A stretch of 64,000 bases of DNA, taken from assembly GCA_018303075.1 (NCBI GenBank), contig JAGVYW010000001.1:7156-71155 (forward strand). The letters run 5' to 3'. The stretch comes from Candidatus Woesearchaeota archaeon. Its GTDB lineage: Archaea; Nanobdellota; Nanobdellia; Woesearchaeales; DSVV01. Made by a program: the position numbers and the translations under genes. The notes beneath the pieces are model-generated. The model was given only the letters and a program-made list of their open reading frames with translations, did no database searches and was not told the DNA's origin. This document shows, piece after piece, positions 2,870 through 53,234 of this stretch. How positions within the stretch are numbered: the first letter of the stretch is position 1; every line of letters starts with the position of its first letter.

Positions 2870-3334
2870 ATGGATTTACGAAAGAAAAAAATGCTCGCGG
2901 GAAAAGTATTAGGATGTTCACCTTATAGGGTGAGATTTGATATAGAGAGATTAGATGAGATTAAAGAAGCAATCACTAAAAAAGATATTATCTCATTAGT
3001 TAAGGATTATGCTGTCTGGAAAGAAAATGTTCAAGGAATATCAAGAGGAAGAGCTAAAAAAAGACATTTACAGCGAAAAAAAGGTTTACAGAAAGGTTTT
3101 GGAAGTAGAAAAGGCAGTAAAAATGCTAGAAATCCTCAGAAACTTGAATGGAAACGAAGAATACGATTATTACGTGTTTATCTGAAAATATTGCGTGACA
3201 AACAATATATCACTACAACAAATTATCATACATTATACATGAAAGCAAAAGGCGGCTTTTTCAGAAGCTTAAAACATATTAAATTATATGTCAATGAACA
3301 TAAATTGCTTCAGAAACCAATTAATATGCAGTAA
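2870..3334 (+). CDS. rpl19e: 50S ribosomal protein L19e (eL19)
   Basis: The basic protein matches the eL19 family, and the gene occupies the eL19 position in the operon. Confidence 0.85.
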   Translation: MDLRKKKMLAGKVLGCSPYRVRFDIERLDEIKEAITKKDIISLVKDYAVWKENVQGISRGRAKKRHLQRKKGLQKGFGSRKGSKNARNPQKLEWKRRIRLLRVYLKILRDKQYITTTNYHTLYMKAKGGFFRSLKHIKLYVNEHKLLQKPINMQ

Positions 3335-3391
3335 TCAATAAAGTTAATTAAAAAATAAATAACAAATCAAAAAATAAACCAATGATGTATT

Positions 3392-3964
3392 ATGACAAAA
3401 CAAATAAGGGTTATACAGAAGAGAAGAAGAAGAGAAGGAAGAACTAATTATCACAAGCGAATAAAAATGCTGCTTGGAAAAACTCCAAGAGTGATTATTC
3501 GTCTATCAACTAATACAGTGGTTATACAATTAGCAAAGTTCAATGAAAAAGGAGATGCAATACTTGCAGCAGTAAATAGTATTGTATTAGAACAACATGG
3601 TTGGAAATTTAAAAAAAATAATCTACCATCATGTTATCTTACAGGATTATTGTTAGGGAAAAAAGCTAAAGAATTGGGCATAACACAAGCAATTGCTGAT
3701 ATTGGTCTACATACTTCAATCAAAGGAAGCAAGATATATGCAGTAATAAAAGGACTGCTTGATGCAGGATTATCAATACCTGTAAGCAAAGATATCTTGC
3801 CATCAGATGATAGAATTCAAGGAAAACATATTGCAGCTTATTTTGCTCAAAATAAAGTCAAACCTAATAATGAACAACAATTTCATGCGTATAAGCAGCA
3901 GCAATTAGCTGCAGAGAATATATCTGTATCATTTAATGAATTAAAAAAAAAAATTATGGGATGA
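3392..3964 (+). CDS. rpl18: 50S ribosomal protein L18 (uL18)
   Basis: The N-terminus RRRREGRTNYHKRIKML is typical of archaeal L18P. Confidence 0.85.
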   Translation: MTKQIRVIQKRRRREGRTNYHKRIKMLLGKTPRVIIRLSTNTVVIQLAKFNEKGDAILAAVNSIVLEQHGWKFKKNNLPSCYLTGLLLGKKAKELGITQAIADIGLHTSIKGSKIYAVIKGLLDAGLSIPVSKDILPSDDRIQGKHIAAYFAQNKVKPNNEQQFHAYKQQQLAAENISVSFNELKKKIMG

Positions 3965-4868: not shown

Positions 4869-5310
4869 GCAATCATCAAAGAAAGAAGCAAAAGAATCTA
4901 GTGAATCAGCAGATGCTGTAAAATTCACAGAACAAGATCAATTAGTAGTAGCTGTGCGAATCAGAGGTTTAGTCAGAGTACCAGGTCATATTAAAGATAC
5001 ATTGCAAATGTTAAACTTACATAAGAAAAACTTCTGCTGTGTCTATAAAGATACACCAAGCATCAGAGGAATGCTGCAAAAGGTAAAAGATTATATCACT
5101 TTTGGCACAATTGATTATGCTTTATACACTCAGATTGTTGAAAAACGAGCAGAGAAAGATGTAAAGAAGAATTGTATGAAGAAGTTTTTTAGATTACACC
5201 CACCAAGAAAAGGATATGGAAGAAAAGGTGTAAAAGTACCTTTTGCTAATTCAGGAGCATTAGGAGATAGAAAGAATGAAATGAAAGATCTGTTAATCAG
5301 AATGTTATAA
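4843..5310 (+). CDS. rpl30: 50S ribosomal protein L30 (uL30)
   Basis: The ORF shows the archaeal L30 pattern VVAVRIRGLVRVPGHIKDTLQMLNL. The start is placed at MAQQK; an ATG at 4822 would overlap S5. Confidence 0.8.
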   Translation: MAQQKQNNKQSSKKEAKESSESADAVKFTEQDQLVVAVRIRGLVRVPGHIKDTLQMLNLHKKNFCCVYKDTPSIRGMLQKVKDYITFGTIDYALYTQIVEKRAEKDVKKNCMKKFFRLHPPRKGYGRKGVKVPFANSGALGDRKNEMKDLLIRML

Positions 5311-5332
5311 CTATTATAGTGAGGAATTTATT

Positions 5333-5779
5333 ATGGTTACAAGAAAACGCGGAAAAATGTCAAGACATCGTGGATCACACACTCATGGTTATGGTGCAAT
5401 GAAAAAGCATCGAGGCAGTGGAAACAAAGGAGGAAAAGGAATGGGTGGTTCAGGAAAAAGAGCTGATTCAAAAAAACCTTCTATCTGGAAAAATAAAGAT
5501 TATTTTGGCAAGCATGGATTTGTTAATGCAACAACAAAAAAACAAAATACTATCAATATTCGTGATATTGAAGAAAAACTGGACAGATATGCAGCAGAAC
5601 AAAAAATAACTCTTGCAAATAATATTTATACAGTTGATCTATCATCATGGGGAATTGACAAGCTGTTAGGTACTGGAAAAGCTAAGCATTCTTATATGAT
5701 AACAGTTGCTGCAGCTTCACAGCAAGCAATTGAAAAAATAGAGGCTGCAAGCGGAAAAGTAATATTAATTAAAGTATAG
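5333..5779 (+). CDS. rpl15: 50S ribosomal protein L15 (uL15)
   Basis: The Gly/Lys-rich N-terminus RGSHTHGYGAMKKHRGSGNKGGKGMGG is typical of uL15. Confidence 0.85.
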   Translation: MVTRKRGKMSRHRGSHTHGYGAMKKHRGSGNKGGKGMGGSGKRADSKKPSIWKNKDYFGKHGFVNATTKKQNTINIRDIEEKLDRYAAEQKITLANNIYTVDLSSWGIDKLLGTGKAKHSYMITVAAASQQAIEKIEAASGKVILIKV

Positions 5780-5866: not shown

Positions 5867-7297
5867 TTGTTCATGTCTTTATGGAAAAACTTAATCTATA
5901 ATCTGCCTGAAGTTGCAGGGCCAACACAGCGAAAACTAGGTTTTAAAGAAAAATTAAAATGGACCATGCTGATTCTTGTTCTGTTTTTCGTGCTTGGTGC
6001 AGTCCCTCTTTTTGGTTTAGGTGAAAATGCATTAGCTCAGTTTGAATTCTTATCATTAATCCTTGGAGCTTCTTTTGGAAGCATCATATCATTAGGTATT
6101 GGTCCAATTGTTACTGCATCTATTGTTATGCAATTGTTGAATGGTTCTGGATTAATAAGTTTCAATCTTCAAGAAGCAGAAGGAAAAAAAAGATTCCAAG
6201 GTACTCAAAAATTATTGGCAATTGTCTTTATCGTGTTTGAAGCAGCTGTCTATGTATATATGGGTGGGTTAGCACCAAATGCTGCATTGCAAGGTACAAG
6301 CGCTTATTTTTCTCTCCAACTGATGCTTGTCTTTCAATTAATAATCGGAGGATTTTTGATCTTGTTCATGGATGAGATTGTTAGCAGATGGGGTTTTGGT
6401 TCAGGATTATCATTGTTTATCGCAGCAGGAGTATCAAAATCATTATTCGTTCAAGCATTCTCATGGTTGCCAGCTATAGGTGGAACAACTGAAATAAGTT
6501 ATGCAACTGGAGCTGTGCCTCAATTATTCCAAGCATTTGCTGCAGGAGATTTGCAGACAGCTGTGCTAGCAATATCAGCATTATTATCAACATTTGCAAT
6601 CTTTGCAATTGCAGTATATTCTCAAGCAATGAAAGTTGAGATTCCATTATCCTTTGGAAGAGTTAGAGGGCATGGAATAAGATGGCCATTGAGCTTTATT
6701 TACACCAGTAATATTCCTGTTATCTTGATATCTGCATTATTAGCAAATCTACAATTATGGGCAAGATTACTGCAAAACTGGGGCAGACCTCTTTTAGGAA
6801 CTGTTGATGCATCAGGCAATGCTGTTTCAGGTATTGTTGCATGGTTATCTATTCCTGGAGGAAGGAGAGGTTTGCTTGGTATGATTATCACTCAAGGTGG
6901 ATTTGGTATTGGTTTTAAACCATATATACAAGCAATAGTTTATCTTCTCGTATTAGTGATAGGGTCTATTGTGTTTTCATATTTCTGGGTGCAAACTTCA
7001 GGAATGGATGCAAGATCACAGGCAAAGCAATTATTGAACTCAGGATTGCAAATCCCAGGATTTAGAAGAGATGAAAGAATTCTTGAAAGAATCTTAAGCA
7101 GGTACATTACACCATTAACAATTATGGGTGGATTAACTATTGGATTTTTAGCTGGATTTGCTGATCTGCTTGGGTCATTAGTTAATGGAACATCATTGTT
7201 ATTAACAGTTATGATCATCTATAGATTATATGAAGATATTGCAAAACAACATATGATGGATATGCATCCTATGCTTAGAAAAGTTATGGGAGGATAA
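5867..7297 (+). CDS. secY: preprotein translocase subunit SecY
   Basis: The ORF encodes a 476-aa protein with about 10 transmembrane segments. It follows L15 as in the conserved operon and shows SecY-family motifs. Confidence 0.9.
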   Translation: MFMSLWKNLIYNLPEVAGPTQRKLGFKEKLKWTMLILVLFFVLGAVPLFGLGENALAQFEFLSLILGASFGSIISLGIGPIVTASIVMQLLNGSGLISFNLQEAEGKKRFQGTQKLLAIVFIVFEAAVYVYMGGLAPNAALQGTSAYFSLQLMLVFQLIIGGFLILFMDEIVSRWGFGSGLSLFIAAGVSKSLFVQAFSWLPAIGGTTEISYATGAVPQLFQAFAAGDLQTAVLAISALLSTFAIFAIAVYSQAMKVEIPLSFGRVRGHGIRWPLSFIYTSNIPVILISALLANLQLWARLLQNWGRPLLGTVDASGNAVSGIVAWLSIPGGRRGLLGMIITQGGFGIGFKPYIQAIVYLLVLVIGSIVFSYFWVQTSGMDARSQAKQLLNSGLQIPGFRRDERILERILSRYITPLTIMGGLTIGFLAGFADLLGSLVNGTSLLLTVMIIYRLYEDIAKQHMMDMHPMLRKVMGG

Positions 7298-15972: not shown

Positions 15973-16048
15973 AAAAGAAGCATGAGAGAAAGCAATTCAG
16001 TAATATTTATAAAGCAATTCTTTTTCTGTTCAGTATATGCGCTGATGG

Positions 16049-16203
16049 TCTAATGGTTACAATCTTTTAGGAAAAGCTTGACCAAAACTTGTGGGTTTCC
16101 TCACTACGTTCGTCAAGCCCACTAAAAAAAGATTGCTGTAAATGACTGTGGCCTTCCAAGCCGCGTATCTGGGTTCGAATCCCAGTCAGCGCATTTCTTT
16201 TCT
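16049..16203 (+). tRNA. tRNA-Gly(UCC) with an ~84-nt intron at a non-canonical position in the D-arm (about positions 21-23); CCA not encoded
   Basis: The acceptor stem pairs GCGCUGA (16049-16055) with UCAGCGC (16196-16202), followed by the discriminator A. The T-arm is CUGGG-UUCGAAU-CCCAG. An intact anticodon arm GUGGC-CUUCCAA-GCCGC gives anticodon UCC at 16165-16167. The 5' exon carries the D-stem and D-loop GUCU-AAUGGUUA. The intron (about 16070-16153) has complementary ends CAAUC/GAUUG and internal helices cttgac/gtcaag and gtggg/cccac. Confidence 0.6.
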
Positions 16204-16237
16204 TTTTTCAAGTAGATTTATATATCTAATAAAATAA

Positions 16238-21579: not shown

Positions 21580-22866
21580 ATGAAGATAAACAAAACCAAG
21601 AATAATGAGAATGTAAATGATATACTCAATCAGATATCAAAACAATATGAGATCTCAGACAAAGATAGAAAGCAGACTAGTAAAAGAATAACTGAATTCA
21701 TAACTCAATTAAAACTGCAACTCAAAAAGAATAATATAAACGCAAAAGTCATGCTTGGAGGCAGTGCAGCCAAATCAACTTATATCAAGAATGATTTTGA
21801 CTGCGATATATTTGTGCGGTTTAATTATAATAAATATGCAAAAGAAGAACAGAGTATATCAAAATACTTGCAGAAAGCACTTCAAAAATATAATTTTATA
21901 ACAATTCATGGTTCCAGAGATTATTATCATGTCAAAAAAGATGATGTAAATTATGAAATAGTACCTGTATTAGACATAAAAGATCCAAAAAAAGCAGTAA
22001 ATGTGACAGATATGTCGCCATTGCATGTAGAATGGGTAAAGAAGCATATCAATAATAATCTTCGCGATCAGATAATACTTACAAAAGTATTTCTTAAGAC
22101 AAATAATCTTTATGGCGCTGAATCATATGTAAAAGCATTTTCTGGGCATGTTGTTGATATTTTATTAGTGCAATACAAAACATTTCTTAATCTGCTGAAG
22201 CAGTCGCAGAAGTGGAAATTATTTGAAGTAATTGACGTCGAAAAACACAATACAGCTAAATGGCTGAATGAATCAAAGATCTCTCCGCTGATTGTAATTG
22301 ATCCATTATTGCCAAGCAGAAATGCCTGCGCAGCATTAAGCAAGGAAAAGTTTGTTTTATTCAAAGAAACAGCAAAAAAATTTCTAGACAATCCTGATAA
22401 AGAATTCTTTACCAAAAAAACAATTAGTGCAGAACAACTGCAGCAGCAGTTAAATAAAGAGTATAAGAGCAAAAAGATTATAGTTGTTAAAGTTACTCCA
22501 TTAAATGGAAAAGAAGATATAGTTCTGACAAAAGCATTAAAAGCATTTGAGTATCTAAAAAAAATCATTCTTGAAAATTATTTTTTTCTTTTTGACAGCG
22601 GGGTTGATTTTAGCAATAAGAAACAAGTATCTTATTTTTTTGTCACAAACAAAAAAATATTGGATAAACAAAAACTTATTAAAGGACCAGCTGCTGAATT
22701 TACTGAAGGGTGTAAAGCGTTTGCTGCGAAACATACTTCTGCATTTTTGAGAGGAAAACAGTGGTTTGCATATGAAAAAAGGAAGTATATAACTCTTGCA
22801 CAGCTAATTAAAAAAGAATTAAACAATAAATATATTGCTGAAAGAATAAAATCTGCAGAATTGTAA
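21580..22866 (+). CDS. cca: archaeal CCA-adding enzyme (class I tRNA nucleotidyltransferase)
   Basis: The pol-beta-type nucleotidyltransferase motif VMLGGSAAKSTYIKNDFDCDIFV lies near the N-terminus. The length (428 aa) is typical of archaeal CCA enzymes. Both tRNAs in the window lack an encoded CCA. Confidence 0.65.
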   Translation: MKINKTKNNENVNDILNQISKQYEISDKDRKQTSKRITEFITQLKLQLKKNNINAKVMLGGSAAKSTYIKNDFDCDIFVRFNYNKYAKEEQSISKYLQKALQKYNFITIHGSRDYYHVKKDDVNYEIVPVLDIKDPKKAVNVTDMSPLHVEWVKKHINNNLRDQIILTKVFLKTNNLYGAESYVKAFSGHVVDILLVQYKTFLNLLKQSQKWKLFEVIDVEKHNTAKWLNESKISPLIVIDPLLPSRNACAALSKEKFVLFKETAKKFLDNPDKEFFTKKTISAEQLQQQLNKEYKSKKIIVVKVTPLNGKEDIVLTKALKAFEYLKKIILENYFFLFDSGVDFSNKKQVSYFFVTNKKILDKQKLIKGPAAEFTEGCKAFAAKHTSAFLRGKQWFAYEKRKYITLAQLIKKELNNKYIAERIKSAEL

Positions 22867-41666: not shown

Positions 41667-42527
41667 TTGAGGTCGCTTAAAATGTCACAAATTGTGCAAA
41701 TAAAATCCCTTGTACTCGCAGCAGTTACAGATAAGATTGGCTATGTAAAGGCTCGAAAAGAGGCCGATAAATTAGCTTCAGAACATGGCTTGAGAGTAGC
41801 TGATACGCCGATGGCAATACAAGCTATGGCTAATCATCCTGAAGTTCGTGAAGCAATAAGGCCAGGATGGATAGACACAATCACTGGCGAATATCATGGC
41901 CAACGAGATGGCGATAGTTCTTATGAAACATGGCATTCCGTAGGTTCTTTGGCAACTGCAAAAGGATTGGAAAAAGTATTTTCCAAAGTTGGAGAATATG
42001 CATTTATGCAGATTGCTGATGACGAATGGATTGCTGTCGGAAAAGGCAATTACAACGGTCAGGATGTTGCAAGAATCCATCTTGATGATGTTAAGAAAGG
42101 CAGTGTGCCTGCAGCAGGAACTCCTTATACTGTTTTTATACGATTGGGCAAGGACAAAGCCAACATCAATGACAGAGGTCAATTAACGTATGATACTTTC
42201 ATGAGTGATGACAGAGTGCTTATGATTGCAGGTTCTCCTGATAACAGGGAAGCACTGGCTAAAATGCTCTTTGGCAGAAAAGAATATGGCGGAGAAGGCT
42301 GGAGCAATATTGGAAGCTATCATAGAATAAATGAAGTTGGCTTTGACGCTCAAGCTAAGGGGCGCCTGGTGTACCTCAACAACAATAGTGTTGGCCTCGT
42401 TGGCGACGGCAACATCAACAACCTTTATGGGCGTTTCGTCGTGGTAGGCGCAGTTGCGCGCGAAAAATCAGCTCCTCTGAGCATCGTGCAGCCAACTCTC
42501 GAGCAGACACTGGCAGTTATCAAATAA
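41667..42527 (+). CDS. hypothetical protein encoded by a GC-rich, compositionally atypical ORF (probably foreign)
   Basis: GC content is visibly higher than in the flanks (for example ggcgcctggtgtacctcaac...gtggtaggcgcagttgcgcgcg). No recognisable family was found. The likely start is MSQIVQ at 41682. Confidence 0.4.
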   Translation: MRSLKMSQIVQIKSLVLAAVTDKIGYVKARKEADKLASEHGLRVADTPMAIQAMANHPEVREAIRPGWIDTITGEYHGQRDGDSSYETWHSVGSLATAKGLEKVFSKVGEYAFMQIADDEWIAVGKGNYNGQDVARIHLDDVKKGSVPAAGTPYTVFIRLGKDKANINDRGQLTYDTFMSDDRVLMIAGSPDNREALAKMLFGRKEYGGEGWSNIGSYHRINEVGFDAQAKGRLVYLNNNSVGLVGDGNINNLYGRFVVVGAVAREKSAPLSIVQPTLEQTLAVIK

Positions 42528-43405
42528 TCCAGACCTGAACAAAGAAGGCATGTTAAAAGCCGTATCTCAGCTGTATAAACATTAAATTACCGATATTTTT
42601 TTATATTCTTCTTGTTATTTCTATTTTTGTCCCAGTTGCTTCGTCAACTTTGATGAAGTTATGAAGTAGCTTGGAACTACACGCCATTTCACTATGGCAA
42701 CATCGCTGTTATAAAATACAACCACGACAGCTAACGTCTGAAGTGGTGGTGGCTTTCAGGAAAGTGAAATGGCTACTATAGTGGCGCCTGGTGTACCTCA
42801 ACAACAATAATAATGGCCTCGTGTCATCTTTAAGTTGCTTTGCTCCTTTTCGAGCCATGATTCCGTTACGTATGGAAATCTTGGTTGCTGCAAGAAGGTC
42901 CTCGCTCACAGTATTGGTCAATTGTGATGCTCTCAAATCAAGTGCCCTGATGGCTTGCTCATTGATTGTACTCTTGACTTTGATTCCTGCAACCTGAGGA
43001 TAATTCTTTTTGATGAAGTTCTCTCCAAGCTTTATTCCTTGCTTGAATTTCTTTTTTGAATCGAGAAAGATTGCTGCAAGAAAGAGGTTCTTTGGATGAA
43101 AATAGTCATAGACTCTAATATTATATTCTTTGCTTTAATAACAGATTCTGTAAAAAGAAGATTAATCCTACAATATAAAGGGAAATTTTTATTTCCATCA
43201 TATGAAATAGACAAACATAAGCAATTATTGTGTCTTTATTGCATGTGCTTTAGCATTTCAAGAAAGCGTAATTTGGTCAGATGATAAAAAATTAAAAGAA
43301 CAGCAGAAAATAACTATTCTCAACACAGAAGAGATTATGGATATTATTTTCTAATTCTTTTTTTTAAACAAAAACTTTATATAACACCTCAGCATATATT
43401 TTATC

Positions 43406-43834: not shown

Positions 43835-46183
43835 CTATTTTTCAGAATTGTCTTCTTTGTTATCACTTTCTTCCTTATTACTATCTTCTTGCTTAGGTTC
43901 ATTTTCAGGTTCTCCTTCTTGATCATCTCTTTCCTGATTTTCTGGTTTTTTATCTTCTTCTCTTTCCATTTCTCTGTTATCTCTTTCTCTTCCATCACCA
44001 ATATGTTCTCGATCCTGTTCAAGTTGTTCTATCTCTTTTTGCAATCGTTGTACATCAGTAAAATCTGGAGCTTCTGGACTTGCTTGTTTTGCATCATGGA
44101 GCAACTGTTTTATCTCTTCAGGACTTAAGCTTTCAAAAGAACGGTCACCAATATTGATTTTTCCTTCTTTCTGCATCCTTCTGAGATCCTCCATGAAATT
44201 GAACTGTTGCTGTCCATGCTGTTGCTGACCGTAGTTTTCTCCAATAGGGAATCCTTGTAGCATTGTTGGAATCTCAACTTTTCTTATGACGCCGCCAATA
44301 GCTTCTTCCCTCTTATTTTCATACATCTCTTGATACTTTGCTTGTCCAGTTCCTTCTGTCATCTTTTGCGTGATTATTTCTTTACATGCATCCATTCCAA
44401 TAAATTCGCCATCTTTTATGCATTCTTGGGGAGTTCTTCCTTGACCACCTGGACTTCCACTGCCAAATTCAGGGAAATCACCTTCACCAAATTCTCCTCC
44501 AGAAAATCCTTGACCTTGTCCTTCTCCTTGCTGATATTTATCTTTCATAATTGTTTCACATGCTTCTTGACCTATAAATTCTCCATCCTTCATACATTCT
44601 TGGGGAGTTCTCCCTTGACCTTCACCACCTTCACTACCCATGCCCTGTCCTTGACCTTTAAACTTTTCTTCGCATGCTTCTCGACCAATAAATTTATCAC
44701 CATCAAAACATTCTTTTGGTATTTTTCCTGCATCACGCATTTTTCCAATGCATTCTTTTTCACCAATTGGCTTTCCACCTTCAATGCATTCTTCAGGGAT
44801 ATTTCCTGTTGCCATCATCTTTTCTTCGCATGCTTCCCTGCCTATGAAATCGTCACCATCAAAACATTCTTTTGGTATTTTCCCTGCTTCTTTCATCTTT
44901 TCCAGACATGCGTTTTCTCCAATAGGTCTTCCTTTTTCAACACATTCTTCTGGAATATCACCTGAATCCATTATCTTCTGTTCGCATTCCTCTCGCCCAA
45001 TAAACTTGCCATTTTCCATGCATTGCTTTGGCATTTTCCCAGAATCAACCATTTTCTTGGTGCATTGTTTCTCTCCGATAAACTTGCCATCTGCAACACA
45101 TTCTTCAGGCATTTCACCAGATTCAATCATCTTTTTTGTGCATTGTTTCTCTCCGATAAACTTGCCATCTTTCATACATTCTTCAGGAGGTTCGCCGTGT
45201 TTTTCAATCATTATCTTCTTGCAATCTTCTCTTGTTTTGACACCTGCATCTTTGCATTCTTGTGGTGCAAACTTGTCAAACATCATATCTTCTGACTCAT
45301 CCATAATCTTTCTAAATTCTTCTCGCATAAATTCTGGTAATAGTTCTTCACCTGCATATTCTCCTTCAGAATCAAGCTCTTGGCAGGCTTCTTCGTTTTC
45401 TTCAAACTCACAAAGTATAATCAATTTTTTTTCTTTTTCACAATATGTCTTCATCTTCTGCACAGGAATATCTTGGCATTGACAATTCTGTATATCTTGG
45501 ACGCATGATCTCAATACTTCTACAAATTTATCTGTTGCTTGCCCCTGCATCTTTCTTATATCTGTTTCAATATATTCTTTTAACCAAGCTGGAGCTGTAT
45601 CAGGATTGCATTTTTCTTCTTGCTCCATGAGTGTATAATCGATGCTTGCCAATTGTTCACAGAGGGAGACAATTTTGCCTGCTAATTCTCCTGCAATCTT
45701 ATTTTTTTCTACCTGGCTGGAAAGAGAATCATATAACTCATGGATCTTTTCTTCATCAGGCAATTGTTCTTGCAATTGTTTAAGAATGTCTTGTATCTCT
45801 TTGCTGTCAGCTTCAACCTGTCTTTTTAATTCTGGAGAGATCTCATCTTCAATCAATGCTGAGATATTCTTTGCATTTACTAATGCAACTGTCAAGGCAG
45901 CTGTTTTGTTCTCGGCAGCCATCTGCTGCGCTTCAGCTGCTTTTTCCTTGACAATCTCTAATGCATATTCCACCTTTTCATCTCCATCTTTTGTTGCCAG
46001 TTTTACCTCTTCAACAACCTCATCAATAAAATAAAATGGACTATCTGGAGTAATTCCTGCTTTTGGCGCTTCGATGACAACTTCCTCTTCCTCTACTGCA
46101 GCAGCAAGAATGCCGAGCATAAAAATACTGATTAATGATAGAAATAATAAACTTACTATCTGTCTTACTCTTTTTTTTTGCAT
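43835..46183 (-). CDS. large secreted Cys-rich protein with at least eight tandem ~24-aa repeats (DGKFIGEKQCTKKM..SG.MPEEC)
   Basis: An N-terminal signal peptide precedes an acidic coiled region and then tandem repeats, which are also visible at the DNA level around 44430-45300. The C-terminus is an acidic Glu/Asp/Lys tail. Confidence 0.6.
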   Translation of the reverse strand: MQKKRVRQIVSLLFLSLISIFMLGILAAAVEEEEVVIEAPKAGITPDSPFYFIDEVVEEVKLATKDGDEKVEYALEIVKEKAAEAQQMAAENKTAALTVALVNAKNISALIEDEISPELKRQVEADSKEIQDILKQLQEQLPDEEKIHELYDSLSSQVEKNKIAGELAGKIVSLCEQLASIDYTLMEQEEKCNPDTAPAWLKEYIETDIRKMQGQATDKFVEVLRSCVQDIQNCQCQDIPVQKMKTYCEKEKKLIILCEFEENEEACQELDSEGEYAGEELLPEFMREEFRKIMDESEDMMFDKFAPQECKDAGVKTREDCKKIMIEKHGEPPEECMKDGKFIGEKQCTKKMIESGEMPEECVADGKFIGEKQCTKKMVDSGKMPKQCMENGKFIGREECEQKIMDSGDIPEECVEKGRPIGENACLEKMKEAGKIPKECFDGDDFIGREACEEKMMATGNIPEECIEGGKPIGEKECIGKMRDAGKIPKECFDGDKFIGREACEEKFKGQGQGMGSEGGEGQGRTPQECMKDGEFIGQEACETIMKDKYQQGEGQGQGFSGGEFGEGDFPEFGSGSPGGQGRTPQECIKDGEFIGMDACKEIITQKMTEGTGQAKYQEMYENKREEAIGGVIRKVEIPTMLQGFPIGENYGQQQHGQQQFNFMEDLRRMQKEGKINIGDRSFESLSPEEIKQLLHDAKQASPEAPDFTDVQRLQKEIEQLEQDREHIGDGRERDNREMEREEDKKPENQERDDQEGEPENEPKQEDSNKEESDNKEDNSEK

Positions 46184-46229: not shown

Positions 46230-47429
46230 TTATTCTTTTAGGCTTTGCTCTTTTAATATTGTATCCTCTTTCTTAAGCTTATACTGTTGATACCATGTAT
46301 AGCAATCATGATCGTACATTTTTTCATACCACTTGCATTGCAGAGCAATACATTGATGATTCTCAAGCTTTTCATCCTCTTTACAAATAATCTTTTCGCA
46401 TTGATGGTTCTTAACAATCTCATCAAATTCACATTCAAGTTTCTGACAGCTATGGTTGATTGTAATCTCATCATCCATACAATTCAGACTTTCGCAGGAA
46501 TGATCTTTTATGATCTCATTATCTAAACATTCAAATTTCTGGCAGCTATTATTGTTGCAGATCTCATCATTGCCACATTCATCATCCCCGCAGCATTGAT
46601 ATTTCTTACATTGATGGGATTCAAGAGGATCAATATATTCGCATGTATTGCAATCTAATTTTTGGCAGATGCTGTTTTCACAGATCTCATCAGCCATGCA
46701 TTCATTGTTTTTTTCGCACAATGGAAGTTCACTGCATTCTTTAGCAATTGAAAATCCTGATTTTTCACATTGGTAGTAGACCATAAATTCCTTGATCTTT
46801 TTGTCAGTATCCCATTTTAATGTAAATCTATTGCCATCATTCTTTCGTTTCATTGTGATTGTGAAATTTTCAAATCCTTCGCTTGTAACAACAGGAGTGT
46901 GCCGTATCACTCTATTTGTATCTAGCTTTGCATTGTAATTCAGCGAATAAGGATTAGCAAAACGGAACTCTTTATTTTTGCTGATCGAAAGGTCATTGAT
47001 AAGAAATTTGCCTACAAATGTGTCATTTCTCATATAACAGGATTCAACAAATGATTGATTCAGCATTCTGCAGCTAAAACTAAATATTGGGCATTTGGCA
47101 GTATACCTTTTCTTTCCAATCTTGATGTAATATGAGGTTGGTTCACCTGCAACAAAGATGCCATCTTGTGATTCATATGTATAATAGGTTACTTTTTTCT
47201 TACCTTCTGTTTTCTCTCTGCTACTCCATGCTCCTTTGACAGGAAAATAATTATCTTCTGCTTTAACTAGCCTAGCTGTAACATCATTTCGTATCAATGA
47301 ATCATCAATCTTCAGCGAGCCATCGTCCTTGCATTCGATTTTTGTTGCTGAAACAAATGAGAGGGAAAGAAGGCTGCAAAAGACTAACACCAAAATGATT
47401 CTATTAGAACGTCTGTTCAATGATGCCAT
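46230..47429 (-). CDS. secreted protein with C-terminal Cys-rich repeats (C.x.EI...H.C..L.C modules)
   Basis: A signal peptide is followed by a beta-rich domain and then about seven short Cys repeats (CQKLDC, CQKFEC, CESLNC, CQKLEC...). Confidence 0.55.
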   Translation of the reverse strand: MASLNRRSNRIILVLVFCSLLSLSFVSATKIECKDDGSLKIDDSLIRNDVTARLVKAEDNYFPVKGAWSSREKTEGKKKVTYYTYESQDGIFVAGEPTSYYIKIGKKRYTAKCPIFSFSCRMLNQSFVESCYMRNDTFVGKFLINDLSISKNKEFRFANPYSLNYNAKLDTNRVIRHTPVVTSEGFENFTITMKRKNDGNRFTLKWDTDKKIKEFMVYYQCEKSGFSIAKECSELPLCEKNNECMADEICENSICQKLDCNTCEYIDPLESHQCKKYQCCGDDECGNDEICNNNSCQKFECLDNEIIKDHSCESLNCMDDEITINHSCQKLECEFDEIVKNHQCEKIICKEDEKLENHQCIALQCKWYEKMYDHDCYTWYQQYKLKKEDTILKEQSLKE

Positions 47430-47694: not shown

Positions 47695-48219
47695 ATGCCA
47701 ACAAAAAAAGCATCTATCCATATCATTCTTACAGGTGGAACAATTGATTCGTATTGGAATGGCACCATTGATACTGCTACGCCATTAAAAGAATCTTCTA
47801 TTCCTCTATTTATCTAATCGTTAAAACTCTATGATAAGGTAATGTTCACAACTATTTGTATGAAAGACAGTAGACAATTAGTACAATCTGACAGAAAAAA
47901 GATTTTGATTGCAACTGAACAAAGTCCATGCAAAAAGATAATTATTACGCATGGAACATATACAATACCCGATACAGCTAAGTTTCTGCAGACTAATTTA
48001 CAGCGAAAAGACCAAACAATTATCTTGACAGGTTCAATGATTCCATTAACTGGATTTTCTCCATCAGATGCTCCTTTTAATTTAGGTTTTTCATTTGCAA
48101 AACTGCCAGAATTATCTGCTGGAGTTTACATCTGCATGAACGGAAGAATCTTCACAGCAGATGAAACTATTAAGCTCTTATTTGAAGGAAGGTTTGCGTC
48201 TGTGTTTGGGGAAAAGTGA
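47695..48219 (+). pseudogene. L-asparaginase N-terminal-domain gene carrying an in-frame TAA stop (codon 41)
   Basis: Asparaginase motifs occur in order and with correct spacing: ILTGGTIDS, IIITHGTYT (the HGTDT equivalent), and ILTGSMIPLTGFSPSDAPFNLGFSFA. A single TAA at 47815-47817 interrupts an otherwise continuous frame. No C-terminal asparaginase domain is present. Confidence 0.5.
48127..48219 (+). repeat. ~90-bp direct repeat, left copy (3' end of the asparaginase-like gene)
   Basis: About 90% identical to 48933-49025. The two copies flank the MNT-HEPN cassette. Confidence 0.7.
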
Positions 48220-48260
48220 TCTTAATAACATTTATATATCTGCAATGCATATTATATTTT

Positions 48261-48554
48261 ATGGTGCGAGACAGACTGCAAATACTAAAACTAAAAAAGA
48301 AGATTCTTCCAGTCTTAAGAAAATATCATATTAAAAGAGCGGGTATTTTTGGAAGCTATGCACGTGGAGAACAAAAGAAAAAGAGCGATGTAGATATCCT
48401 AATACTGCCTCCACATGGGCTTGGTCTTGGTTTTATAAGAATTGAATCTGAATTAGAAAAAGTTTTAGATACAAAAGTTGACTTACTTTCATATAATGGG
48501 ATTAATCCTCGCCTAAAAAATAAAATTTTAAAAGATGAGGTCAGAATACTTTGA
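48261..48554 (+). CDS. minimal nucleotidyltransferase (MntA-like antitoxin)
   Basis: The nucleotidyltransferase motif is GIFGSYARGEQKKKSDVDIL, in a protein of about 100 aa. Confidence 0.75.
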   Translation: MVRDRLQILKLKKKILPVLRKYHIKRAGIFGSYARGEQKKKSDVDILILPPHGLGLGFIRIESELEKVLDTKVDLLSYNGINPRLKNKILKDEVRIL

Positions 48555-48898
48555 ATAGAGACTCAATTATCTTCTTAGAGCATATGCTTGATGCAATTAA
48601 TAATATTGACAAGTTTATGTTAACTGTTACTAAACAAGAATTCTTTACTAATGTTGAGAAACATAGCGCAGTAGTTCGCCAACTTGAGATTCTCGGTGAA
48701 GCTGCTAAGAACCTAAAACATTCTTTTATATCGAAATATCAATCTATTCCTTGGAAAGAAATAATCGGTTTGAGAGATAAAGTTATACATCATTATTTTG
48801 GACTTGATATGGAGATAATATTTGATATCGTAAACAAAGAATTACCTCCTTTGAAAAAAAATCTTCAAAAGATAATCAAAATAGAGAATGAGAAATAA
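48551..48898 (+). CDS. HEPN-domain protein (HepT-like toxin, DUF86)
   Basis: The R-x4-HxY HEPN motif is RDKVIHHY. The start overlaps the MNT stop (ATGA), which is the typical MNT-HEPN pair organisation. Confidence 0.75.
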   Translation: MNRDSIIFLEHMLDAINNIDKFMLTVTKQEFFTNVEKHSAVVRQLEILGEAAKNLKHSFISKYQSIPWKEIIGLRDKVIHHYFGLDMEIIFDIVNKELPPLKKNLQKIIKIENEK

Positions 48899-48932
48899 TA
48901 TGCACTCATGTTTGACACTTCTTAATCAACCA

Positions 48933-49025
48933 TACATCTGCATGAACGGAAGAATCTTCACAGCAGATGAAACTATCAAGATCCTATCAGAAGGAAGGTT
49001 TGCGTCTGTGTTTGGAGAGAGATAA
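48933..49025 (+). repeat. ~90-bp direct repeat, right copy: an orphan duplicate of the asparaginase-like gene's 3' end
   Basis: It encodes YICMNGRIFTADETIKILSEGRFASVFGER*, compared with ...YICMNGRIFTADETIKLLFEGRFASVFGEK* in the left copy. Confidence 0.7.
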
Positions 49026-49391: not shown

Positions 49392-52300
49392 ATGCAACAA
49401 AAAAAAGACTGGGATTTTGAAGTGATTAAAGAAGGAGAAGAAAATATATTGTACATATATTGTGAAGGGGTAAGCATATCGCCTTTAGTTGAAGATTCAA
49501 GTATTGTGATGATTAGAACAATCGATATTCTTTCTCAAGTATCCGGTATAAGCAAGATAATATTCAATCAAAAAAGAGATTATGAGTATGATTTCAAACA
49601 AACACAGATTCTTGCAGAGATTGCAGAACTTTATAAAAAACTAATAAAAGAAAAGAATTATTTCAATTATCCTACTGCTGGTAATTACGATAATAGGATT
49701 ATCAATCAGAAATATAATGAATTGCGAGAAATTATATTTAAACATATGAAAGGAGATCCTATTGGCGCATATATTGAATTAACAAGAATAATGCGAAGAG
49801 AAAAGATTGATCTTGAAAAAGTAGTTGAACAGATACAACAGGATATTACAAAAAGGTATATAGCAATAATAAGCTACGTTACAAGCCTTCTTGAAAAGAC
49901 AAGAATGCTAATACTTGCAAAACCATACATTGCTGGCTATAAAATTGGAGATAGAAGCGTTTACAAATACATTTTCACTCCGTCAATAAAGCCAGATTTT
50001 ATGTTTACAAAATTAATGGCTAATTTTCCAAGCAATGCTGAAGAGATTGATTCATACATAATTGGCGACGATACAGATGTTACTATCTTTCGTCTGCCTG
50101 ATTCAACAATAATACTCTATCATATTGTACCGCCTGAATTCAAGCTTCCTGAAGAAAAATATGAATTATTAGATATGGCAAGAAAAATTCTTGCAGAACA
50201 CAAGCCAAAACAAGAAGAGTTTACAGATCCAGAAAGGATGCGCGAGGTATTTTCTAATATTGGCAAGGACTTGCTTGAAGAGATTGCAACATCGAAGAAT
50301 ATTATGTTGAGAGAGAAAGAGCTGCAAAAATTAACGCAAATCTTAGTGCGATACACTATTGGTTTTGGGTTGATTGAAGTGTTATTGCAGGATGATGATA
50401 TGCAAGATATCTCAATCAACAGTCCATTGGGAAAGATACCTATATTCATTGTGCATGGAAAATATGGCGATTGCACAACAAATATTATCCCGACAAAATC
50501 AGAATCTGAAAGCTGGGCGTCAAAATTGAGATTAATCTCTGCCCGTCCATTAGACGAAGCAAATCCAATATTAGATACAGAATTAGAACTGCCTGGTGCA
50601 TCTACAAGAGTTTCTGTAATTACACGGCCATTAAATCCAACAGGACTAGCATTTTCTTTTAGAAAACATAGAGATAAACCCTGGACGTTACCATTGTTCA
50701 TTAAATTCAAAATGTTGAATCCTATTGCAGCTGGTTTAATCAGTTTCCTTGTTGATGGAACGCGGACAATTTTAATTGCAGGAACAAGAAGTGCAGGAAA
50801 ATCATCTTTTTTGACAGGGGTGCTTGTTGAGATTATGAGAAAGTATAGGATAATAACAGTAGAAGACAGCGTTGCAGGTGATTCTGAGATATTAATCAGA
50901 AATAATAATAAATGGCAAAGAACAACAATAGGGAATCTTATTGATAAACAGCTAGAGAAACAAGTTTCATTACAGACATTTTCTGGACATGAGGTTGCAG
51001 AAAATACTGAAGATATTGAAATTTTTGCAATGAACAAAAAAGGAAAGATCGTAGTCACAAAACCTTCTGTATTTATTCGACATAAAGTAACAAAACCAAT
51101 CTATGAGATAAAAACAAGAACAGGAAAGATATTGAAAGTAACAGGAGATCATTCTCTATTTGCAATTGGAGAAAACGCAGAGATTTCAGAGGCAAAAGTG
51201 AATAATCTAAACATCGGAAACAAAATAGCTGTAGCAAGAAAACTACCGTTAATCAATCAAGAAAAAGAATTTATGAACATATTATACGATGTAATTGAAA
51301 GAACAGATTCATTTATTACAGGTTTAACAACAAACTATTGCTTAGAACATCATTTTAATGATATATTATCATTTGGTTCAGCAAGAAATGTTAGCTCTGC
51401 AACAATAAAAAGTTGGAGAAGAAACAAAGTTCTTCCTGGATATATTGCTAAAGATCTTATGACACTCCATCAAACACTTGACTTTTCAACAGATAAATTC
51501 AGAATCAATAATTCACAGAAATTGATATCATTAAAGATACAATTGAATGAAGATTTTATGACATTTATTGGATTATGGATTGCAGATGGGTGTTATGATA
51601 AAAAATCAATTATCATATCCTGCAATGATCCAGAAGACAGAGCAGTTGTAGAAAAAGTTGGAAAAAGCTTTGGAATACAATACAAGATGCATAGTGATGG
51701 CATTTCATATATGCTCAATTCCAAAACATTGAAAGTGGTATTGCAGGATATTCTTTCATGCACTGGGGATTCATACACTAAAAGAGTTCCTGGATGGATA
51801 TACACACTCTCCCCGCAGCAAATTGCTGCATTTTTACGAGGAGTATTTACTGGCGATGGCTGCGCTACAGACAAAGAAATAGTAATCAATCTTTGTAGCA
51901 GGCATCTTCTCTCTGATATGCAAACATTACTCTTGATTTTCAATATTAGTCTGAGAATAGGGAATTTTATTCCAAGAGATAAAACAATACGAGCTGCTAT
52001 CTCTGGAAACGAATATCTAACAAGTTTTGCAAAATATATTGGATTTCTACAACCATATAAAAACAATGTTCTTTCAAGACTTTGTGAGAAAAAGATAACT
52101 CATGATACAACAGATACATTTGATTTAAGAATAAATACAAAAATAGAACTTGCTAACTTATTTGGCAAGAGATTCAATAAAAATGATTACATAAACAGAA
52201 ATAACAGCATAGGAAGAAGAAAACTTACATCATTATTGCAAGTACAATCGCAAACACAGATGCTAGAGTTACAGCATCAAATACTAGAAAACTTAAAGCA

Positions 52301-53234
52301 ATTGCTTGAATCAGATATATATTGGGATGAGATAATTGAGATAGAAAAAATGGAGAATTTTGAAGGATATGTCTATGACCTTTCTGTACCTGATTATGAA
52401 AGCTTTATCTGTAGAAATATTATAGCACACAATACGTTAGAGTTGCCTAACAAAGCTTTTCGTGATCTTGGATTTAACATACAATCAATGAAAGTTGCAA
52501 GCGCATTGGCCCATGATTCAACAGAAGTTTCTGCTGAAATTGGAATCAGAACAACACTTCGTCTAGGAGATTCAGCATTGATTGTAGGAGAAGTTAGAAG
52601 TAAAGAAGCAGTTGCATTGTACGAAGCAATGCGTGTTGGCGCTGCTGCAAATGTTGTTGCAGGAACAATTCACGGCGATTCTCCTTATGGGGTATATGAC
52701 AGAGTTGTAAATGATATTGGCATTCCCAAGACATCATTCAAAGCAACAGACATCATCATTGTTACAAATCCAATAAAATCAGCAGATGGTATGCATAAAT
52801 ACAAGAGAGTTACACAGATAACAGAAGTGCGAAAGCGCTGGGAAAATGATCCAATGGAGGAAAAAGCATTTGTTGATCTGATGAAATATGAGCCAAAAAC
52901 AGATGAATTATTGATCACTCCTGACCTAAAAAATGGCGATTCAGAAATTCTCAAAGCAATTGCAGGAAATGTCAAGGAATTTGCTGGCAGCTGGGATGCA
53001 GTATGGGATAATATCCTTTTACGTGGAACAATTAAAGAGAATATAGTGAAGATGGCAGAACAAACAAAAAATGACGAATTATTGGAGGCTCCATTTGTGA
53101 CAAAAGCTAATGACATGTTCCACATAATATCTGAAAAAGTAAAAGAAGAAGTTGGTTTTTTAGACAGTAAAAAGATACTCTTTCAATGGAATGATTGGTT
53201 GAGTAGAGAAGTAAGAAAGACGCAGAAAAGTTGA
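49392..53234 (+). CDS. type II/IV secretion-family ATPase (FlaI/GspE/VirB11-like) containing a large intein
   Basis: The Walker A site is AGTRSAGKSS. The Asp box RIITVED|TLEL is split by the intein. Downstream motifs are LIVGEVRSKEA and TIHGDSP (the His box). The extein is about 758 aa with a long N-terminal domain. Confidence 0.85.
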   Translation: MQQKKDWDFEVIKEGEENILYIYCEGVSISPLVEDSSIVMIRTIDILSQVSGISKIIFNQKRDYEYDFKQTQILAEIAELYKKLIKEKNYFNYPTAGNYDNRIINQKYNELREIIFKHMKGDPIGAYIELTRIMRREKIDLEKVVEQIQQDITKRYIAIISYVTSLLEKTRMLILAKPYIAGYKIGDRSVYKYIFTPSIKPDFMFTKLMANFPSNAEEIDSYIIGDDTDVTIFRLPDSTIILYHIVPPEFKLPEEKYELLDMARKILAEHKPKQEEFTDPERMREVFSNIGKDLLEEIATSKNIMLREKELQKLTQILVRYTIGFGLIEVLLQDDDMQDISINSPLGKIPIFIVHGKYGDCTTNIIPTKSESESWASKLRLISARPLDEANPILDTELELPGASTRVSVITRPLNPTGLAFSFRKHRDKPWTLPLFIKFKMLNPIAAGLISFLVDGTRTILIAGTRSAGKSSFLTGVLVEIMRKYRIITVEDSVAGDSEILIRNNNKWQRTTIGNLIDKQLEKQVSLQTFSGHEVAENTEDIEIFAMNKKGKIVVTKPSVFIRHKVTKPIYEIKTRTGKILKVTGDHSLFAIGENAEISEAKVNNLNIGNKIAVARKLPLINQEKEFMNILYDVIERTDSFITGLTTNYCLEHHFNDILSFGSARNVSSATIKSWRRNKVLPGYIAKDLMTLHQTLDFSTDKFRINNSQKLISLKIQLNEDFMTFIGLWIADGCYDKKSIIISCNDPEDRAVVEKVGKSFGIQYKMHSDGISYMLNSKTLKVVLQDILSCTGDSYTKRVPGWIYTLSPQQIAAFLRGVFTGDGCATDKEIVINLCSRHLLSDMQTLLLIFNISLRIGNFIPRDKTIRAAISGNEYLTSFAKYIGFLQPYKNNVLSRLCEKKITHDTTDTFDLRINTKIELANLFGKRFNKNDYINRNNSIGRRKLTSLLQVQSQTQMLELQHQILENLKQLLESDIYWDEIIEIEKMENFEGYVYDLSVPDYESFICRNIIAHNTLELPNKAFRDLGFNIQSMKVASALAHDSTEVSAEIGIRTTLRLGDSALIVGEVRSKEAVALYEAMRVGAAANVVAGTIHGDSPYGVYDRVVNDIGIPKTSFKATDIIIVTNPIKSADGMHKYKRVTQITEVRKRWENDPMEEKAFVDLMKYEPKTDELLITPDLKNGDSEILKAIAGNVKEFAGSWDAVWDNILLRGTIKENIVKMAEQTKNDELLEAPFVTKANDMFHIISEKVKEEVGFLDSKKILFQWNDWLSREVRKTQKS
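50868..52433 (+). mobile_element. intein (522 aa) with a LAGLIDADG homing-endonuclease domain, inserted in the Asp box of the secretion ATPase
   Basis: Block A begins with Ser: SVAGDSEILI. The LAGLIDADG motifs are FIGLWIADG and FLRGVFTGDG. The C-terminal block is VYDLSVPDYESFICRNIIAHN followed by the +1 Thr. Removing the intein restores RIITVEDTLELP. Confidence 0.8.

Follow-up and report, generated by a model that had tools for sequence, protein, structure and literature searches.

The 64,000-nt stretch analysed here (the window; positions 7,156 to 71,155 of contig JAGVYW010000001.1, from a Candidatus Woesearchaeota archaeon) carries at 16039–16193, on the forward strand, a 155-nt tRNA-Gly(UCC) gene composed of three parts—a 5′ exon, an intron, and a 3′ exon (Table 1). 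The initial annotation had described a tRNA-Gly(UCC) interrupted in the D-arm at 16049–16203; reading the sequence directly, we found all of the elements it described, including an acceptor stem, T arm, and complete CUUCCAA anticodon arm in the 3′ exon (16148–16192), with the whole gene lying 10 nt upstream of the coordinates it gave. Its placement of the intron outside the canonical 37/38 position and within the D-arm also holds, with the refinement that the interruption falls in the D-loop, between nucleotides 20a and 21, and not in the D-stem. The intron length, given there as ~84 nt, becomes 83 nt once the splice sites are set by the motif described below, a bulge-helix-bulge (BHB).

A D-loop-interrupted tRNA-Gly(UCC) gene

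Both halves of the gene belong together. The initial annotation had allowed that the 5′ half might prove unrelated; instead, its acceptor strand pairs with the 3′ end at 7/7 positions, and the same 5′ exon is contiguous with the remainder of the gene in orthologues that are intronless or differently interrupted. Removing the intron in silico yields a 72-nt tRNA-Gly(TCC) that is called by ARAGORN and keeps all universal tertiary nucleotides (U8, A14, G18, G19, A21, U54, U55, C56, and A58). It also carries G1-C72, C2-G71, G3-C70, A73, and C35 C36, which we take to be the archaeal/eukaryal glycine identity elements. Default ARAGORN calls tRNA-Gly(tcc) in an orthologue without the intron (L020; loci compared with the window are numbered with the prefix L). 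The intron-bearing gene is found in identical form on two further public metagenome contigs (L003 and L017), and a gapped exon pattern matched nothing among the species genomes and, among the metagenomes, recovered only the identical copy L017.

Upstream of the gene, a TTTATAAA/TTTATTAA box recurs at equal distance in 14 of 15 compared tRNA-Gly genes, and this position and conservation mark TTTATAAA as a putative promoter. The T-rich tract that follows the gene is a likely archaeal transcription stop, and such tracts also follow many of the compared tRNA-Gly genes.

Table 1. Features of the tRNA-Gly(UCC) gene, its intron, and associated elements, in window coordinates (↓ marks a predicted cut)
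Feature	Position	Strand	Description
Putative archaeal TATA box TTTATAAA	16006–16013	+	About 26–33 nt upstream of tRNA 5′ end
5′ exon	16039–16058	+	Nucleotides 1–20a: acceptor, U8 G9, D-stem GUCU, D-loop AAUGGUU
5′ acceptor strand GCGCUGA (DNA GCGCTGA)	16039–16045	+	Read from sequence
D-stem 5′ strand GUCU (DNA GTCT)	16048–16051	+	Read from sequence; preceded by UG
D-loop AAUGGUUA (DNA AATGGTT(A))	16052–16059	+	Read from sequence
BHB central helix, exon strand H(a) AUGG (A15 U16 G18 G19)	16053–16056	+	Pairs with CUGU 16136–16139
5′ bulge B1 UU↓A	16057–16059	+	Cut after U16058 by the BHB rule
Intron, 83 nt	16059–16141	+	Between D-loop nucleotides 20a and 21
Closing helix h′, 5′ strand CAAUCUUUU (DNA CAATCTTTT)	16060–16068	+	9 bp with 16127–16135
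Conserved intron core, family A, AAAAGCUUGACCAAAA..GUGGG..GUCAAGCCCAC	16072–16122	+	Near-identical in introns of relatives
Inner 7-bp helix GCUUGAC/GUCAAGC (DNA GCTTGAC/GTCAAGC)	16076–16082 / 16112–16118	+	Read from sequence
Closing helix h′, 3′ strand AAAAGAUUG (DNA AAAAGATTG)	16127–16135	+	9 bp with 16060–16068
BHB central helix, intron strand H(b) CUGU	16136–16139	+	Pairs with AUGG 16053–16056
3′ bulge B2 AA↓A	16140–16142	+	Cut after A16141; A16142 becomes A21
3′ exon	16142–16193	+	A21, D-stem UGAC, U26, anticodon arm, variable loop, T arm, acceptor, A73
D-stem 3′ strand UGAC (DNA TGAC)	16143–16146	+	Read from sequence; U follows
Anticodon arm GUGGC-CUUCCAA-GCCGC	16148–16164	+	Anticodon UCC at 16155–16157
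Variable loop GUAU	Between anticodon arm and T arm	+	Read from sequence
T arm CUGGG-UUCGAAU-CCCAG	16169–16185	+	Read from sequence
3′ acceptor strand UCAGCGC (DNA TCAGCGC)	16186–16192	+	Read from sequence
Discriminator A73	16193	+	No CCA encoded
T-rich tract TTTCTTTTCTTTTTTC	16194–16209	+	Read from sequence
Class I (archaeal) CCA-adding enzyme gene	21580–22866	+	Pfam tRNA_NucTransf2, 3.2e-30

A DPANN-type archaeal host is borne out by the surrounding genes. The window (32% G+C) encodes the ribosomal proteins L32e and L19e, which are of archaeal or eukaryal type, SecY, archaeal Nre, a family-B DNA polymerase, and the CCA-adding enzyme, and among named homologues, those nearest to the neighbouring Rpe-RpiB fusion protein are from metagenome-assembled genomes of Woesearchaeota/Nanoarchaeota. 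The open reading frame (ORF) for the CCA-adding enzyme, which would supply the CCA missing from the tRNA gene, has in addition a weak, sub-threshold match to CAA_C (2.9e-4; 20.9 bits against a cut-off of 22.2).

The expectation that standard tRNA finders overlook this gene proved correct: default ARAGORN and the Rfam tRNA model at its gathering threshold are both silent at the site, and a permissive Rfam search aligns the 3′ exon alone, scoring 20.9 bits where the cut-off is 29. Run in intron mode (-i), a check suggested by the initial annotation, ARAGORN reports tRNA-Ser(gct) at 16038–16194 with a 64-nt intron, which is an artefact of the insertion being forced into the anticodon loop. Rfam at E ≤ 1 recovered no further partial tRNAs across the whole window. 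In one relative (L012, 6314–6409, reverse strand), default ARAGORN labels a 94-nt tRNA-Gly(UCC) with a 22-nt D-loop intron as “tRNA-Tyr (ata)”; therefore, short D-loop introns can give rise to mis-annotation instead of a miss. The BHB models of tRNAscan-SE 2.0 were trained on Crenarchaeota/Euryarchaeota and Thaumarchaeota (PMC8450103), and incomplete tRNA sets in DPANN have been taken to point to undetected disrupted genes (PMC5829648).

Splice motif and its conservation in relatives

The junctions of the intron can be drawn together into a BHB, by definition a helix of 4 bp with a 3-nt bulge on either side, the splice sites lying within the bulges (PMC4090602). The central helix forms between AUGG in the D-loop and CUGU near the 3′ end of the intron (A-U, U.G, G.U, and G-C) and lies between two 3-nt bulges on opposite strands, a strict 3-4-3 arrangement. 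A 9-bp closing helix, of which the complementary ends CAAUC/GAUUG noticed initially are the outer 5 bp, abuts both the B1 and the H(b) boundaries, so that a BHB-compatible structure is present at both junctions. Exon 1 ends in AAUGGUU (A14 A15 U16 G18 G19 U20 U20a) and exon 2 opens with A21, as in the 20/21 position class. We placed the cuts after the second nucleotide of each bulge because the central BHB helix of canonical introns takes in the first two bases of the anticodon (PMC4090602). This rule was calibrated on the T-arm introns of L001 and L002, which were found independently of any BHB pattern; there, a UCCG/CGGA helix and the bulges AG↓N and AA↓U lead to excision of the extra bases exactly at 53/54. 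Folding of the 155-nt stretch gives −51.3 kcal/mol (z = −4.1 relative to shuffles), with a minimum-energy structure in which the intron hairpin projects from the D-loop of a cloverleaf.

Several observations weigh against a spliced BHB intron. Two of the four central pairs are G.U, and the unconstrained minimum-energy fold does not contain the central helix, which costs 0.2 kcal/mol to force (−51.1 versus −51.3 kcal/mol). The outer helix h is weak, consisting of 2 bp (A14-U22 and U13.G23) or else of the D-stem two nucleotides off. A loosely defined BHB located anywhere is common by chance, occurring in 65% of shuffles. For the relatives considered below, neither the complementarity of H(b) nor the 3-nt 3′ bulge counts as independent evidence, since the search pattern required both. 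Finally, EndA, RtcB, and archease were not found among the ORFs of about 70 aa or more in the window; the splicing machinery would therefore have to be encoded elsewhere in the genome. EndA has been reported in all DPANN examined, in the (alpha-beta)2 form in Nanoarchaeum, as epsilon2 in ARMAN, and as alpha4 with an extra L3 loop in several lineages, the L3-loop form being associated with more disrupted tRNA genes (PMC5829648). In principle, a broad-specificity heterotetrameric EndA, the type that the initial annotation suggested looking for, would not be required for this intron, because the motif is a strict 3-4-3 BHB and recognition of the BHB is position-independent.

Since the generic BHB scan did not discriminate, we replaced it with an in-register test. 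Under this test, the central helix together with at least three closing pairs arises in only 0.15% of intron shuffles, and none of 200,000 shuffles gave an in-register BHB whose closing helix reached 9 bp or more. The evidential weight thus lies only in the register of the BHB and its conservation, not in its existence. Two other approaches to the splice sites were set aside: a hand-built BHB (TACA 16058–16061 / TGTA 16137–16140) left 6 unpaired nt between h′ and H(b) and a 12-nt D-loop, and brute-force splicing at all exon 1/exon 2 boundaries followed by ARAGORN was uninformative, with hundreds of boundary combinations accepted.

We next turn to conservation. Species-representative genomes were scanned for a tetranucleotide complementary to the D-loop located 3 nt upstream of the 3′ D-stem strand, which returned 13 genomes, all with an intron of 22–89 nt at the same site as in the window. 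Nine of these are titled Nanoarchaeia, Nanoarchaeota, Woesearchaeota, or plain archaeon. The other four (L007, L014, L015, and L016) were titled “uncultured Methanosarcinales archaeon” by their submitters, and their gene and promoter context is Nanoarchaeia-like; the titles could reflect mislabelling, contamination of the bins, or an intron with a wider distribution.

What is independent of the search pattern is the length of the 5′ bulge, the abutment of the closing helix, and the covariation within that helix. In all 13 genomes, h′ begins exactly 3 nt past AUGG/ACGG and ends exactly at the intron tetranucleotide. Across the junction alignment, 96.4% of cells are paired, compared to 83.5% in shuffles (0/500 reach the observed value) and 22–49% in slid registers. 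H(a)/H(b) is paired in 100% of cells across the 13 species (H(b) having been pre-selected by the pattern), and each of the first six h′ pairs (6/6 tested) has changed on both sides. The two genomes with ACGG (C16) have CCGU, and thus a G at the pairing position of H(b). The third base of B2 is always A (13/13), whereas that of B1 varies among A, C, and G (C or G in L007, L012, and L016); from this constancy on one side and variation on the other, it follows that the universal A21 comes from the 3′ exon and that the splice sites are fixed. After splicing, ARAGORN called tRNA-Gly in eight genes including the window’s, these having no second intron or being called despite one. A second intron, at 53/54 or about 59/60, is present in 7 of the 13 genomes (L004, L005, L008, L010, L013, L015, and L016).

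Taken together, we consider it very probable, judging from sequence, that a Woesearchaeota/Nanoarchaeia-type DPANN archaeon carries at 16039–16193 a functional tRNA-Gly(UCC) gene, interrupted at 20a/21 by an 83-nt protein-spliced BHB intron. Transcription would start from the TATA box about 27 nt upstream. For the precursor, the sequence and its comparison with relatives show A15-U16-G18-G19 pairing with the CUGU near the intron 3′ end, the bulges flanking this central helix and the 9-bp intron helix closing the motif. Following established archaeal tRNA processing, EndA would cut after U16058 and A16141; an RtcB-type ligase would join the exons and probably circularise the intron; RNase P and tRNase Z would trim the ends; and the CCA-adding enzyme would complete the product, a 72-nt tRNA-Gly.

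The gene might alternatively be a disabled copy or pseudogene, its D-loop disrupted by a short mobile element or other insertion and its transcript left unspliced. The lack of a splicing enzyme gene in the window would fit, as would the conserved inverted repeats and core of the insertion, which resemble a possible small mobile element, and the partial tRNA-Gly duplications that adjoin the gene in L006 and L020, which indicate that the locus rearranges. Nevertheless, the exons have lost none of the universal tRNA nucleotides and form a perfect acceptor stem, the promoter is conserved, and the exact 3-4-3 BHB occurs in the sole register that restores A21 and is kept, with a covarying h′, in 13 species. 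We therefore regard a pseudogene as very improbable. Still less credible is the ARAGORN intron-mode output, a tRNA-Ser(GCU) whose 64-nt intron occupies the canonical site in the anticodon loop: that program places introns only in the anticodon loop, and its model requires mismatches in both the D-stem (tctg/caat) and the anticodon stem and treats as a “variable arm” what is an anticodon arm of five perfect pairs around a CUUCCAA loop. The model is refuted by tRNA-Gly(UCC) orthologues that have the same exons without the D-loop insertion (L001, L002, and L018–L021) and by the BHB in register at 20a/21. A self-splicing intron of group I or II, as in tRNA genes of Patescibacteria and other bacteria, for which the presence of group I introns in tRNA genes of low-GC, small-genome, uncultured lineages such as Patescibacteria offers a precedent (PMC13011429), is negligible as an explanation, given an archaeal host, a BHB, and an insertion that at 83 nt is far too short for either ribozyme and matches no Rfam intron family, or indeed any Rfam RNA, even at E ≤ 10.

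The partial duplications mentioned above comprise, in L006, a copy of the 5′ exon and intron start directly upstream of the intact gene (694–799) and, in L020, a copy of the tRNA-Gly 3′ end, TCCGGCTTCGAATCCCGGCCGACGCA, about 100 nt downstream of the intact gene (about 3260–3290). Recombination or integration at the tRNA gene may have left them behind as scars.

Intron families and turnover

Directly downstream of Rpe-RpiB, the syntenic locus holds the same tRNA gene in different states. The window copy has the D-loop intron; L001 and L002, with Rpe-RpiB identities of 77% and 71%, are without it and have a 31–33 nt intron at 53/54 instead; and the more distant L018–L021 (50–53%) have an intronless 72-nt tRNA-Gly(UCC). 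Immediately 3′ of the tRNA-Gly in L001 and L002, on the opposite strand, lies a free-standing LAGLIDADG_3 homing-endonuclease-like ORF (2877–3701 and 4971–5348, respectively, both on the reverse strand) that is absent from the window.

Sequence similarity among introns crosses both loci and positions within the tRNA. Between the window and L008, where the gene sits in a different neighbourhood, the introns are 94% identical (79/84), whereas the exons are only 86% identical (62/72). The core of the window intron, which defines what we call family A (core pattern AAAAGCTTGACCAAAA...GNGGG...GTCAAGCCCNC), is near-identical in the D-loop introns of L008 and L004 and in the intron of a tRNA-Thr-like gene in L013, and the family-A ends A-CAAY...RUUG recur in the L004 D-loop intron and in the L013 intron, which lies in the anticodon loop. 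Local alignment of the window Gly 20a/21 intron to the L013 Thr-like 37/38 intron gave z = 12.9, with 0/2000 shuffles scoring as high. Family B (core pattern TTGAYRGAAAGCA...GGAACG) occupies the D-loop in L005 and L009 and the T-loop (59/60) in L004; here, alignment of the L005 Gly 20a/21 intron to the L004 Gly 59/60 intron gave z = 28.8 (again 0/2000 shuffles), and the 3′ exons of L004 and L005 are identical. The sequence covered was the 64-kb window and, for relatives, pieces of 2–20 kb. No second copy of the family-A core was found within the window, and a scan of a viral contig collection for this core returned no matches. Within the core, GCUUGAC/GUCAAGC and GUGGG/CCCAC form a candidate pseudoknot, with one compensatory change among four sequences (GUGGG/CCCAC to GAGGG/CCCUC) and loop lengths that look sterically awkward.

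The Thr-like gene, a tRNA-Thr(UGU)-like one, occurs in L013 (about 4165–4020, reverse strand) and in L024 (12511–12617, forward strand). Its D-loop, AGUAGCUA, is without GG, and its T-loops (CGCACAU and UGCAAUU) are unusual. The L013 copy has a 74-nt family-A intron at 37/38, and the L024 orthologue has a 14-nt canonical BHB intron (CUUG/CAAG) and a variable-loop insertion. Neither ARAGORN nor Rfam calls the L013 gene, and default ARAGORN also misses the L024 copy. We regard it as a real gene because the orthologue in L024 shows compensatory stem changes and a classic canonical BHB intron. L024 is itself a copy of the L005 genome, and was reached, along with an unrelated locus (L023), through look-ups with the peroxiredoxin encoded beside the L005 gene; this protein was rejected as a probe for relatives, being ~70% identical across many phyla.

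The differences at the syntenic locus, the contrast between 94% and 86% identity, and the sequences shared at other tRNA positions together suggest, from few loci, that introns have been mobile in DPANN. On this basis the window intron is most likely, at lower confidence than its identity as a BHB intron, a recently acquired copy from a mobile or exchangeable family of intron sequences. Our tentative proposal, somewhat short of an even chance, is that family A is a mobile BHB-intron family in Woesearchaeales that spreads between tRNA positions and genomes; if so, its features would be the conserved ends, a conserved core of ~50 nt, and a short exon-pairing strand that depends on the site.

Alternatively, the intron could be old and vertically inherited, its conservation reflecting selection on a function of the intron RNA (for example, as a stable circular RNA or protein-binding element) rather than recent mobility. 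An intron better conserved than its exons between the window and L008 would be expected under such selection, the compensatory change in the core points the same way, and functional long archaeal tRNA introns are known, such as that of tRNA-Trp with its box C/D RNA (PMC4090602). On the contrary, the closest syntenic relatives (71–77% identity) are without this intron and more distant ones are intronless, and related intron sequences are found at other tRNA positions. Elsewhere, the same site holds unrelated or much shorter introns (22–38 nt), and thus the interior sequence is not required for the tRNA. Nor does the window intron match Rfam or contain box C (RUGAUGA) or box D (CUGA) motifs anywhere in 16059–16141. 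Strict vertical descent consequently appears unlikely to us, though it deserves weight.

Wider context of the window and comparison with known systems

Several further features of the window lie apart from the tRNA gene. The two copies of a direct repeat of about 41–43 nt (42358–42400 and 42780–42822) differ at four sites (AATAATAATGG versus AATAGTGTTGG); at three of them the second copy has an adenine, and the fourth is T versus G at the left edge. The first copy is near the 3′ end of an ORF without a Pfam match (41667–42527), and an Rfam RT-16 RNA (42630–42781, forward strand, 84 bits) lies between the copies. The pair looks like the variable and template repeats of a diversity-generating retroelement; no reverse transcriptase was found among the window ORFs of about 70 aa or more. 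Further along (47842–49018), a nucleotidyltransferase/HepT toxin-antitoxin pair (48216–48554 and 48551–48898) is flanked by an 86-nt direct repeat of 93% identity (48127–48212 and 48933–49018) and adjoined by an N-terminal asparaginase fragment (47842–48219); as a cassette, it may have entered a gene and duplicated the target. The window also encodes a 1280-aa type II/IV secretion-family ATPase ORF (49392–53234, forward strand) split by an intein with a LAGLIDADG homing-endonuclease domain, and a 782-aa DUF5667 protein (43835–46183, reverse strand) with tandem repeats at 44373–45190 (period 78 nt, or 26 aa), next to an ORF (46230–47429) with repeats of 48-nt period.

As a splicing substrate, the tRNA-Gly intron is of a known kind. 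Positions 20/21, 53/54, and 59/60 are listed insertion points of archaeal non-canonical tRNA introns (PMC4090602), and D-arm and T-arm introns are typical of archaea (PMC12397907); the D-loop 20/21 class is thus already documented, and the window intron is useful for annotation and unsurprising to a specialist. It shares with the non-canonical BHB introns of Thermoproteales, Nanoarchaeota, and others their splicing by protein (here predicted), 3-4-3 motif, and independence of position, but differs in its host, a Woesearchaeota-type DPANN archaeon from a group for which such introns are little described in the literature consulted, and in its length, 83 nt as opposed to a median of 12–25 nt (PMC4090602). 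The euryarchaeal tRNA-Trp intron is likewise unusually long with a conserved interior; it is a box C/D intron at 37/38, however, whereas the window intron lies in the D-loop without C/D boxes or an Rfam match. Nanoarchaeum equitans and ARMAN, with their split and multi-intron tRNAs, also exemplify disrupted DPANN tRNA genes with BHB-like motifs, and the seven relatives with two introns resemble such multi-intron genes. By comparison, the window gene is contiguous, has one strict BHB, and contains nothing to suggest trans-splicing or permutation. With the Patescibacteria group I introns (PMC13011429) it has in common that standard annotation overlooks the tRNA genes concerned, in organisms that are ultrasmall and uncultured; those introns are bacterial, self-splicing, and much larger, whereas the window intron is archaeal, 83 nt long, and BHB-bounded.

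For turnover, the closest parallel comes from Thermoproteales, in which intron transposition has been described (Fujishima et al. 2010; summarised in PMC4090602). The transposed families share with ours an exon-pairing strand apparently adapted to the local exon and an occurrence at several positions, here Gly 20a/21 and Thr-like 37/38 for family A and Gly 20a/21 and 59/60 for family B. They differ in that our pattern extends across related DPANN genomes at a handful of loci rather than as many copies in one genome. Within the limited literature searched, we found nothing similar described for intron transposition in DPANN.

In practical terms, these results expose a tRNA-Gly(UCC) gene that is unseen by default ARAGORN and Rfam and labelled as Ser once introns are allowed. 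Such misses inflate the apparently “incomplete tRNA sets” of DPANN genomes, a problem already raised in PMC5829648. If the mobility of family A is real, “tRNA intron transposition”, so far described for Thermoproteales, would extend to DPANN, and very closely related genomes with identical exons and shuffled introns (L004 versus L005/L013) would allow intron gain to be dissected; in a stronger version, the conserved core would be needed for mobility or would endow the (circular) intron, once excised, with its own function. Orthologous copies of one tRNA-Gly gene are, depending on the relative, intronless, interrupted at 53/54, interrupted at 20a/21, or interrupted twice. Should these patterns hold genome-wide, Woesearchaeales would represent a second independent system, besides Thermoproteales, for the study of intron gain and movement.

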